DNA of 37,699 nt from Promethearchaeota archaeon (GTDB lineage: Archaea > Asgardarchaeota > Lokiarchaeia > Sigyniarchaeales > SOKP01): contig JAFGOA010000025.1 of assembly GCA_016926735.1 (NCBI GenBank), forward strand, positions 1-37,699, written 5' to 3'. Positions 36,420-37,699 of the stretch are shown here, piece after piece. Within the stretch, counting starts at the first letter, position 1. Every line of letters begins with the position of its first letter. Both the position numbers and the translations under genes were made by a program. The notes beneath the pieces were generated by a model that saw nothing but the letters and a program-made list of their open reading frames with translations, searched no databases and had not been told where the DNA came from.

Positions 36420-36544
36420 ATTACTTTTTATAAATGTTGATAAAAAATAGGTTCACTCATTTTGTAATCCAAAAATAATTAAAAATAATTAAAAATAGTA
36501 TCAAAAAAACATTATTTTGATACTTTTTTATTTATATATAGAAT

Positions 36545-37162
36545 ATGAAAGCAAAAGAAGTAAAAAAATTATTAGACATAACCCAACCTACATTAAGTAA
36601 ATATGTAAAAATTGGTTTAATAAAAGTAGAGAAAATTAATCCATATTTTTATATTTATAATGATGATGATGTTTATAAATTAATTGGTTCAAAAAGAACA
36701 AAATGTGAAAGAATAAACGTTAGTTATGCCAGAGTGTCAAATAAGACAAGAAAAAATGATTTAAAAGAACAATCTAATAGAATTTATAATTATTCATTAA
36801 CAAATGGATTATCTATCAGTAAACAATTTGAAGATATTAAATCTGGAATATCTTTTGATCGTATTGGATTAAAAGATATGTTAAAATTAATAGTAGATAG
36901 ACAAATAGATAATATAGTAATAGAAAATAAAGATAGATTATGTCGATTTGGTTTTGAAATATTTGTTGAATTATTTAAATTTTATGGTACAAAAATATTA
37001 GTTATTTCGGAAGAAATACAAAATAAAACATACGAACAAGAATTAACTGATGATTTAATTTCAATTATCCATTATTTTTCAATGAAATCTTATTCAAATA
37101 GACGAAAATTAAATAAGATCAAAAAAGAATTATTAACTAATAGTGATAACAATAAAGTTTGA
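36545..37162 (+). CDS. tnpA: IS607-family transposase TnpA (serine recombinase with N-terminal MerR-like HTH)
   Basis: N-terminal HTH (LLDITQPTLSKYVKIGLIK); resolvase core VSYARVSNKTRKNDLKEQ and DRLCRFGFEIFVELF match the IS607 TnpA YARVSS..Q..DL..Q / DRLTRFGFEY blocks. Confidence 0.85.
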   Translation: MKAKEVKKLLDITQPTLSKYVKIGLIKVEKINPYFYIYNDDDVYKLIGSKRTKCERINVSYARVSNKTRKNDLKEQSNRIYNYSLTNGLSISKQFEDIKSGISFDRIGLKDMLKLIVDRQIDNIVIENKDRLCRFGFEIFVELFKFYGTKILVISEEIQNKTYEQELTDDLISIIHYFSMKSYSNRRKLNKIKKELLTNSDNNKV

Positions 37163-37699
37163 TATAAAATCTAATAACGAAAAATATATTTTAAGAAAGC
37201 AGAAGAACTATTCATTTGCATTTAGAAAGTTATACAAGCATTTTAACGAGATAAATAATCCAAGTTATCTAGACTTTATAAAAACTATGTTTAAGTTATC
37301 TACATATGAATTAAATTGTTTGAAGATAGATTTAAGCATGAAATTAAATCATGTTCAAACTAACAAAACAAAATTAGAAAAAAACATCATTGAAACCGAA
37401 AAGGAAATCGATAAGTTAACTAAAATAAAAAACAGAACATCCAAAGAAACCAAACGATTGTTCAAATTAAATAAAAAACTTGCTTATAAAAATAAAAATC
37501 TATCAAAAGATATAACCTTTGGTTCTAGAGCTTTACTTAAACAAATTTCATTCTTAAACAACGACAAAGAGTTAAATAAAACTAAAATTAAAGAAAAAAC
37601 AGAGTTATTTAAATCAAAAAGGGTTCTGCCAATTAATTATGTTGGATCACTAAACGACAAAAACTCAAACCGTTATTTTGACTTCGATTTTATAAACAA
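37143..37699 (+). CDS. lysine-rich ORF overlapping the tnpA 3' end in another frame; possible IS607 orfB (TnpB-like) N-terminal part, truncated by the window end
   Basis: Open frame from 37137 (GTG 37143, first ATG 37287) to the window end; position and tnpA overlap fit the IS607 two-gene layout, but no RuvC motif falls inside the window. Confidence 0.3.
   Translation, partial: MITIKFDIKSNNEKYILRKQKNYSFAFRKLYKHFNEINNPSYLDFIKTMFKLSTYELNCLKIDLSMKLNHVQTNKTKLEKNIIETEKEIDKLTKIKNRTSKETKRLFKLNKKLAYKNKNLSKDITFGSRALLKQISFLNNDKELNKTKIKEKTELFKSKRVLPINYVGSLNDKNSNRYFDFDFIN

Follow-up and report, generated by a model that had tools for sequence, protein, structure and literature searches.

Background

Insertion sequences (IS) encoding tnpA together with tnpB, or tnpB alone, have been known in virulent Campylobacter phages since 2010 (Timms et al., PMC2853527). 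Phages CP220 and CPt10 carry ISCaje1-4, and ATTTT targets are reported for the related ISCaje elements (PMC2853527). TnpB is frequent in phages (bioRxiv 10.1101/2024.05.30.596742); the zinc finger has been lost in some of its branches, and a number of the rearranged ones are confined to viruses (PMC10691335). The ends of IS607-family elements are marked by short repeated subterminal motifs and by an imperfect inverted repeat near the ends (PMC6188088). The present study concerns a window of 37,699 nucleotides (nt), that is, positions 1 to 37,699 of the forward strand of contig JAFGOA010000025.1 (GenBank assembly GCA_016926735.1, deposited as Promethearchaeota archaeon). This 37.7-kb stretch has 25% GC, and its last 2 kb hold a split methyltransferase gene, an open reading frame (ORF) of 205 amino acids (aa) and an ORF open at the edge. 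The window probably ends in an IS607-family element of the ISCaje4 type, about 2.29 kb long and composed of tnpA and a 524-aa tnpB without a zinc finger, which resides in the genome of a large phage and next to which a DNA methyltransferase was knocked out independently.

ISCaje4 (CP220 / vB_CjeM_WX1) shares with this element the two-gene layout in a large phage; the TnpA proteins are 56% identical and the TnpB proteins 30% identical over 383 aa (E 1e-28), the TnpB of ISCaje4 being zinc-finger-less and Pfam-negative too. The ATTTT target of the ISCaje elements can be compared with the left flank found here, ...CATTTT|G. The two differ in the length of TnpB, which has 465 aa in ISCaje4 and 524 aa here with a longer coiled-coil insertion, as well as in the environment and in the lineage of the host phage, which is huge-phage-like in the present case. 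The ends of the present element were defined in this analysis and not taken from ISfinder.

IS607 of H. pylori and IS1535 (Chen et al. 2018, PMC6188088) likewise encode a serine transposase with a MerR-type helix-turn-helix (HTH) followed by orfB, lack a long perfect terminal inverted repeat and any target duplication beyond a possible 2-nt core, and carry short subterminal repeats together with an imperfect inverted repeat close to the ends. They end in GG and insert at GG, whereas the junctions here read TG|TA and TC|TA, and their TnpBs are canonical proteins with the zinc finger that is missing here. Further points of comparison are the IS607 TnpB and omega-RNA of CboIStron (Zedaveinyte et al., PMC10690162) and the TnpB of ISDra2. 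The TnpB described here shows no detectable sequence similarity to solved TnpBs, has no zinc finger, has an extra C-terminal domain of about 80 aa, and its predicted target-adjacent motif (TAM) would be AT-rich and not G-rich. CboIStron uses a TGGG TAM, and its scaffold terminates in UCGG (PMC10690162), a pair formally analogous to the TGTA/TCTA of the present element. The best structural matches are Cas12f, Cas12k and Fanzor2, over 280-380 residues and at an identity of 12-18% only. Fanzor2 is also borne on IS607-type elements in viruses; in contrast to these systems, the present locus has no CRISPR array and its host is not eukaryotic.

Phage-borne IS607/TnpB elements are a kind already known, to which the present element adds a well-delimited example. 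The original prediction for this DNA, which had called an active IS607 in a lytic phage noteworthy, overstated the case in view of the record dating from 2010 (PMC2853527) and of 145 relatives in IMG/VR. The remaining interest lies in an uncharacterised TnpB branch enriched in phages and in the natural target allele that accompanies it. For this branch, which the Pfam and NCBIfam models tried do not detect, the analysis defines the two ends, the subterminal repeats and a candidate omega-RNA; should activity be confirmed, the clade could supply compact nucleases whose TAM is AT-rich.

Results

Transposase and TnpB

The part of the element lying within the window comprises the following features.

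36464 to 37699, plus strand: left 1,236 nt of an IS607-family (ISCaje4-like) IS, placed by its homology boundary with contig L021
36459 to 36499, plus strand: left arm of a 41-nt imperfect inverted repeat, 80% complementary to positions 11932-11972 of sister contig L001
36472 to 36501, plus strand: three tandem 10-nt subterminal repeats (AAAATAATTA, AAAATAATTA, AAAATAGTAT), from sequence reading and a motif scan
36492 to 36529, plus strand: palindrome with 18-nt arms, AAAATAGTATCAAAAAAA / TTATTTTGATACTTTTTT, from the repeat search, 16 nt 5' of the tnpA ATG
36545 to 37162, plus strand: tnpA, IS607-type serine transposase of 205 aa (NF033518; Pfam Resolvase and MerR_1)
37143 to 37699, plus strand: tnpB, first 185 of 524 codons, with a GTG start and a 20-nt overlap with tnpA in another frame

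In TnpA a MerR-type HTH (MerR_1) occupies aa 1-46, and the Resolvase catalytic domain, with the YARVS motif, extends over aa 59-188 (E 5e-17). It matches the NCBIfam model NF033518, "IS607 family transposase", at 149.8 bits against a cutoff of 110, with aa 4-190 aligned to positions 1-186 of the 187 of the model. This above-cutoff match and the MerR-then-Resolvase order identify the family, in agreement with the original prediction, which had recognised both an IS607-type MerR-HTH serine recombinase and a tnpA-tnpB layout. The latter was borne out by the ORF that starts at GTG 37143 in another frame and stays open to the edge, its homologues starting with M-I-T-x-K at the same place.

Within the window, tnpB covers the WED strand and a long coiled-coil REC region, and the RuvC motifs lie beyond the edge. 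The remainder of the gene is not found at the window start, where a circular contig would have placed it; in the sister contigs the full gene encodes 524 aa, as read from the six contigs that hold the whole element. When the ORF is extended in this way, the RuvC-I/II/III residues appear as D295 (GIDLN), E368 (IEDL) and D430 (DPxNAS), invariant in an alignment of 60 homologues and located on the expected strand ends and helix start of the structure model. The AlphaFold model, made for a representative 92% identical to this TnpB, has a predicted confidence (pLDDT) of 90.9 and the overall WED-REC-RuvC fold, and its best Foldseek likenesses are Cas12f, Cas12k and Cas12g (E 2.5e-7 to 1e-4, probability 1.0). 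The C4 zinc finger (TNB) is absent from the segment between RuvC-II and RuvC-III, which has a single, partly conserved cysteine (C403) and forms a short helix, SSFIGN... No useful match was obtained in the PDB with either the single sequence or the family profile. Alignment and model together point to a divergent member of the TnpB/Cas12 superfamily that has no zinc finger and in which RuvC-III is followed by an additional domain of about 80 aa. The refuting condition attached to the original prediction, a downstream ORF devoid of TnpB/RuvC features once extended, is thus not borne out.

A search of 1.84 billion cluster representatives with a profile of the TnpB family retrieved 1,508 clusters (50% identity) at E <= 1e-3, 590 of them at E <= 1e-30; as only 1,508 clusters were found, the clade, although sizeable, is separate from canonical TnpBs. 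Its 145 relatives in IMG/VR viral contigs often occur two per contig, and many of these contigs are 100-370 kb long. Among GenBank phages, the family is present in LR756504 and LR756500, both huge "uncultured phage" genomes, in Campylobacter phages and in Lak megaphages, where it occupies as many as five places per genome. It is multi-copy in metagenome-assembled genomes (MAGs) of Bacteroidota, mostly as tnpB-only elements; a serine tnpA lies directly 5' of tnpB in L021, L027 and many viral loci. Assignment to clade RIIIr-4, which is zinc-finger-less and virus-enriched, was considered and not made, the RuvC-III Asp being replaced by His in RIIIr-4 whereas D430 is invariant here.

Two large viral contigs carry two family copies each, namely L049 and L073 on IMGVR_UViG_3300033512_000218, and L052 and L060 on IMGVR_UViG_3300037067_005074, one copy with tnpA and one with tnpB only. 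In one of these pairs the homology begins exactly at the tnpB ATG, indicating a truncated, non-autonomous copy.

Boundaries and ends of the element

The element measures about 2,289 bp, from window position 36464-36467 to a point some 1,050 nt outside the window (L001 about 11965-11968), where the window coordinate equals the L001 coordinate plus 26786 and the boundaries hold to within 3 nt. The left end is given by a copy 80% identical in an unrelated context (L021), homologous from GTAATCC at window 36464 onwards. The right end is given by the sister contig L042, free of the IS, which matches the window almost perfectly as far as 36412 and rejoins the IS-bearing genomes at L001 11966 (...GGTATC|TAAAAATACAC); in L076, a third copy, the match continues through ...GGTATCTAA and stops there. 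The start of the element given in the original prediction, 36420, is corrected to about 36464, and that of tnpB to 37143. The point at which contig L017 diverges from the window (36418/36419) was also considered as the left end and was rejected, given that homology with L021 starts at 36464 and similarity to L042 extends to about 36462.

The 41-nt imperfect inverted repeat is the longest that the repeat search found in the region. It scores 21; random window pairs drawn from this AT-rich locus gave 8.4 +/- 1.6 (maximum 17.5), and 0/981 of them beat it. The three 10-nt repeats lie within it and are mirrored at the right end; their position makes them candidate binding sites for the HTH of TnpA. 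Neither a perfect terminal inverted repeat nor a target duplication beyond a possible shared TA was observed, and the boundaries, inverted repeat and subterminal repeats together match the published end architecture of IS607 (PMC6188088). The junctions read ...TTTTG|TAATCC... and ...GGTATC|TAAAAAT, that is, TG|TA...TC|TA, and do not show the GG ends and GG insertion of most, though not all, IS607 members. An exchange core of TA fits most, not all, of nine related copies.

As shown for the family, TnpA would bind at either end, to the 10-nt repeats and to the imperfect inverted repeat, excise the element as a double-stranded circle and, by conservative exchange, reinsert it at a short core. The predicted circle junction is GGTATC-TA-ATCCAAAAAT, i.e. 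...TTATTTTGGTATC-TA-ATCCAAAAATAATT, and the predicted scarless donor joint is ...CACTCATTTTG-TA-AAAATACAC.

The palindrome upstream of tnpA has kept its structure and not its sequence: in the 80%-identical copy of L021 both arms have changed and are still mutually complementary (ATTCCAAAAA...TTTTTGGAAT; GTATC...GATAC becoming ATTCC...GGAAT). A role as operator or as read-through terminator is conceivable.

Candidate omega-RNA and a predicted natural target

The stop codon of tnpB lies 35 nt before the right end, beyond the window. A three-helix structure extending over the last approximately 135 nt is common to 11 related elements, its closing helix using the terminal 17 nt. Standard pairs fill 90.2% of the pair cells of this alignment, as opposed to 36-47% when the partners are slid by 1-3 columns, and double-sided changes affect 10 pairs, as opposed to 0-5 in the slid controls. 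Covariation scores 0.433, a value that 0/500 shuffles reached, and sliding lowers it to 0.155 at most. The minimum free energy prediction for the single sequence returns the same three-helix fold (z = -2.4). A search of the whole element against Rfam gave no useful match. The check for a 3' RNA proposed with the original prediction has yielded an RNA-like structure, conserved and covarying, at the 3' end of tnpB, which may be regarded on moderate evidence as a candidate omega-RNA scaffold.

According to the proposed mechanism, the 3' end of tnpB and the 35 nt that follow would fold into the scaffold, whose predicted 3' end (...UUGGUAUCUA) abuts the right flank, and the transcript would carry this flank as its guide (AAAAUACACAUAAUC...; in DNA, AAAATACACATAATC...). 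Contig L042 reads ...ATATTTG-TA-AAAATACACATAATCATTTAG... and does not differ from the sequence to the right of the IS for more than 90 nt. With the TAM-like TTTGTA and a perfect match to the predicted guide, L042 would be expected to be a natural target. TnpB-omegaRNA would cut such IS-free copies of the locus at the T-rich, TAM-like TTTGTA followed by the guide match (AAAATACAC...), and in a mixed infection recombinational repair would copy the element in, resulting in its homing or retention. It is conceivable, if doubtful, that the clade consists of uncharacterised RNA-guided nucleases with an AT-rich TAM (approximately TTTGTA) and a TA instead of a GG core which, together with the transposase, act as a phage-to-phage gene drive converting IS-free alleles. 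The existence of a sister genome with the predicted target makes TnpB-driven homing between co-infecting phages directly testable.

Distribution in the phage population

Several observations weigh against the interpretation of the locus as a mobile IS607/TnpB element. On the protein side, TnpB has no Pfam match even at E 10 (OrfB_IS605 and Cas12f1-like_TNB included), scores 30.0 bits against TIGR01766 "TnpB-related", below the cutoff of 32, and is missing the C4 zinc finger of typical TnpBs. At the ends, a GG is located 6 nt inside the right end, and the exchange dinucleotide is ambiguous, related copies ending in GTATATA or GTATATT. The covariation of the 3' structure derives from 11 sequences of about four lineages and partly from coding sequence. 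As for the population, in the assemblies from ENA, JGI and Logan a look-up of the exact TnpA gave 23 contigs and one context only in 10/10 places listed, and a look-up of the broken methylase gave 24 contigs, among the 10 listed of which 7 hold the IS at the site, two end earlier inside the element and L017 is without the IS at the site; three contigs are common to the two listings. No second IS copy and no circle junction were found among the contigs listed. Furthermore, L042 is not a clean empty site, and an insertion plus a deletion, or a module exchange, must be assumed.

Recent movement of the element in this phage left no sign among the contigs examined, and the word "active" used in the original prediction is unproven. 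Searches for a clean empty site did not yield one: the downstream 174-aa protein had no relatives in IMG/VR, a 25-mer of the left flank matched a single, IS-bearing contig in JGI metagenomes, and a 26-mer of the right flank had no match in IMG/VR. The only IS-free variants found are the mosaic L042 and L017. Mobility is suggested at the level of the family, in which the 80%-identical copy has different flanks (L021/L076) and copies with or without tnpA are multi-copy in Bacteroidota MAGs and viral contigs; at the present site, the sister contigs L042 and L017 lack the element.

The single context of the exact TnpA and the 7 of 10 broken-methylase contigs with the IS at the site would also suit a fixed, no-longer-mobile resident, with genes retained or decaying, which, if used at all, would benefit the phage and not the element, perhaps by providing a nuclease directed at host DNA or rival phages. 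In favour of this explanation are also the near-identity of the element across samples, since it occurs whole in six independent contigs of which five are identical and one is 99.65% identical, and the strong representation of the family in phages, with several copies per huge-phage genome. Near-identical copies are equally expected of a recent arrival, however, and a resident of this kind is at odds with two intact ORFs with conserved catalytic residues, with ends, subterminal repeats and a 3' RNA fold that are intact and covary across the family, and with sister genomes that differ by the presence or absence of the IS at the site. We therefore consider it improbable and retain the reading of an IS607 element of the ISCaje4 type.

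In a separate observation, a number of assemblies break inside the element, at IS positions 715-1535 and mostly in tnpB (L005-L007, L009, L010, L012, L014, L016, L018-L020 and L041). In L041 the tnpB variant is only 97% identical there, with tnpA and the left flank at about 99.5-100%. Breaks and variant together suggest co-existing tnpB variants or recombination between IS copies.

An independent lesion in the neighbouring methyltransferase

Upstream of the element, the window contains the following features.

35610 to 36397, plus strand: pseudogene of a beta-class N6/N4 DNA methyltransferase (PF01555, 97 bits)
35752 to 35756, plus strand: 5-nt insertion GTTAA, from the alignment of the window with L042 (placement ambiguous within 35752-35758)
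36382 to 36419, plus strand: two tandem 19-nt copies, ATCATTTGTTATCTAATCG / ATCATTTGTTATTTAATCG, from the repeat search
36413 to 36463, minus strand: short spacer between methyltransferase and IS, possible remnant of the 3' end of a gene-30.3-like gene

The N-terminal piece of the methyltransferase (35610-35756) has 48 aa and ends in DLPYG followed by TAA, and the remainder continues in the -1 frame to the TAA at 36395-36397. Both motifs are present, motif IV DLPY being N-terminal to a motif I-like DNTAGSGTT. The ORF of this gene is not full-length in the window, where the 5-nt insertion with its in-frame TAA interrupts it. A search with the conceptually repaired protein identified an intact allele of 260 aa, P0121 (DLPYGITKNSWD), in the IS-free sister contig L042, and the window gene minus the five extra bases is identical to this allele over 783/783 nt. 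The intact form is the ancestral one, because homologues read DLPYGIT... The insertion creates the in-frame TAA and a net frame change of -1. The original description of a -1 frameshift after DLPYG thus holds for the net change and not for a slip of one nucleotide: a 1-nt deletion in a T run and programmed -1 frameshifting are both ruled out by the intact allele, which reveals a 5-nt insertion, and by the absence of a slippery site.

The disruption claimed by the original prediction is real. An identical insertion is present in 19/19 other fetched population loci covering the site, which belong to at least 15 different contigs (some loci being the same contig again) and to different assemblers and platforms; its recurrence across these loci excludes a sequencing or assembly error. 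That the methyltransferase is nevertheless functional, either through ribosome hopping from GGU over UAA or by virtue of the insert being an assembly artefact, is very improbable. Hopping would be favoured by a take-off codon GGT directly before the stop, as in T4 gene 60, and by the 640 nt past the lesion, which are undamaged and nucleotide-identical to the intact allele. Such identity is expected in any case, the genomes being almost identical outside mosaic patches, the site offers neither a slippery heptamer nor a landing codon that matches (AGT in place of GGN), and start codons are absent before 36029, while the artefact is countered by the 19 loci just mentioned.

A phage site-specific serine recombinase (resolvase or invertase) followed by an unrelated gene, with no transposon, is effectively refuted, as the single genomic position seen and the weak matches of the TnpA Resolvase domain to the XisF and YneB models are outweighed by the full-length, above-cutoff IS607 equivalog match with an N-terminal HTH, by the recurrence of the gene pair with the same ends in the L021 context and many viral contigs, by the TnpB fold of the downstream gene and by the status of ISCaje4 as a curated IS.

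The original prediction had also proposed that the IS inactivated the methyltransferase or arrived together with it. The IS starts 67 nt past the methyltransferase stop codon, and contig L017, which diverges after 36418, has the 5-nt insertion and no IS at the site; lesion and IS are hence not linked. Excision by serine recombinases leaves no scar. A lesion made by the IS, with a footprint of GT and TAA from its two ends, was accordingly rejected, scarless excision being expected and L017 uncoupling the two. The lesion is best described, from the alleles compared, as ordinary pseudogenisation independent of the IS.

A coincidence is recorded here for completeness. The insertion (window 35748-35762) sits inside GGTATC, the same hexamer as the tip of the right end of the IS (GGTATC|TA), which occurs only 13 times in the window on both strands together, and GT+TAA, the inserted bases, could correspond to the 2 nt that open the IS plus the 3 nt that close it. 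An earlier visit of the IS may have left this trace, but the match is suggestive numerology only.

Further DNA methyltransferase genes, apparently intact, are located at window 13648-14472 (minus strand) and L001 2462-3217 (phrog_56; PF01555). Given these, the loss of the methyltransferase beside the IS may be tolerated by the phage.

A mosaic junction downstream of the methyltransferase

The 19-nt tandem duplication spanning the stop codon, as noted in the original prediction, is confirmed: the copies at 36382-36400 and 36401-36419 match at 18/19 positions and span the TAA at 36395-36397. Both copies also exist in L017, free of the IS at this site, so the duplication is not an insertion footprint; in L042 the second copy is partial.

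Beyond 36412 L042 departs from the window, with a similarity of about 70% persisting to about 36462. The minus-strand reading of this spacer, ...DYKMSEPIFYQHL, resembles the ...KSKKSETVLTKSEFISRL of a gene-30.3-like ORF of L042, and the spacer may tentatively be viewed, on this weak resemblance, as the diverged 3' remnant of a convergent T4 gene-30.3-like gene (139 aa and PF08010 in L042). Compared with L042, the IS-bearing genomes are without about 495 nt to the left of the IS, corresponding to most of the gene-30.3-like ORF and a 67-aa ORF.

Three downstream arrangements, namely the IS607 element, the gene-30.3-like cassette of L042 and a 32-aa ORF in L017, converge within 8 nt (window 36412-36420; L042 7739; L017 5390). 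The IS is located at a variable spot between convergent genes, and the spot just behind the methyltransferase stop and the 19-nt tandem repeat is, as read from these contigs, a recombination or mosaic junction in the phage population.

The phage genome

The window is a fragment of a phage genome, as it encodes phage-type proteins and a single-stranded DNA-binding protein (SSB) related to those of huge phages; a large phage akin to the "huge phage" (Mahaphage-like) lineages would fit its gene content. Phage-type proteins include the T4 gp32-like SSB, an endolysin, further methyltransferases and an intein-containing glycosyltransferase. The SSB is 42-46% identical to the SSBs of huge phages of 634-735 kb. 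The landfill study from which the sample of L042 originates described Mahaphage-clade megaphages with Bacteroidetes as predicted hosts. The host of the present phage is probably a member of the Bacteroidota.

Other genes of the window are of interest in their own right. An 832-aa protein (31216-33714, minus strand) matches the Major Vault Protein shoulder (E 2e-27), Vault_3 and SPFH/Band-7 domains, and a vault-like protein is unusual in a phage. Its gene is present in this strain and in L006/L012 and absent from sisters such as L001 and L013, which have a 186-aa gene instead. The family-4 glycosyltransferase (780 aa; 17244-19586, minus strand) is split by an intein with a LAGLIDADG homing-endonuclease domain (Pfam, PHROG), a second selfish element in the window. 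Finally, over the compared region 34820-35560 the window differs from L042 in two short patches only, at 34820-35300 and 35420-35560, which lie in genes of 151 aa and 123 aa; the DNA flanking both patches is essentially identical, in the manner of a patchy mosaic and not of uniform drift.

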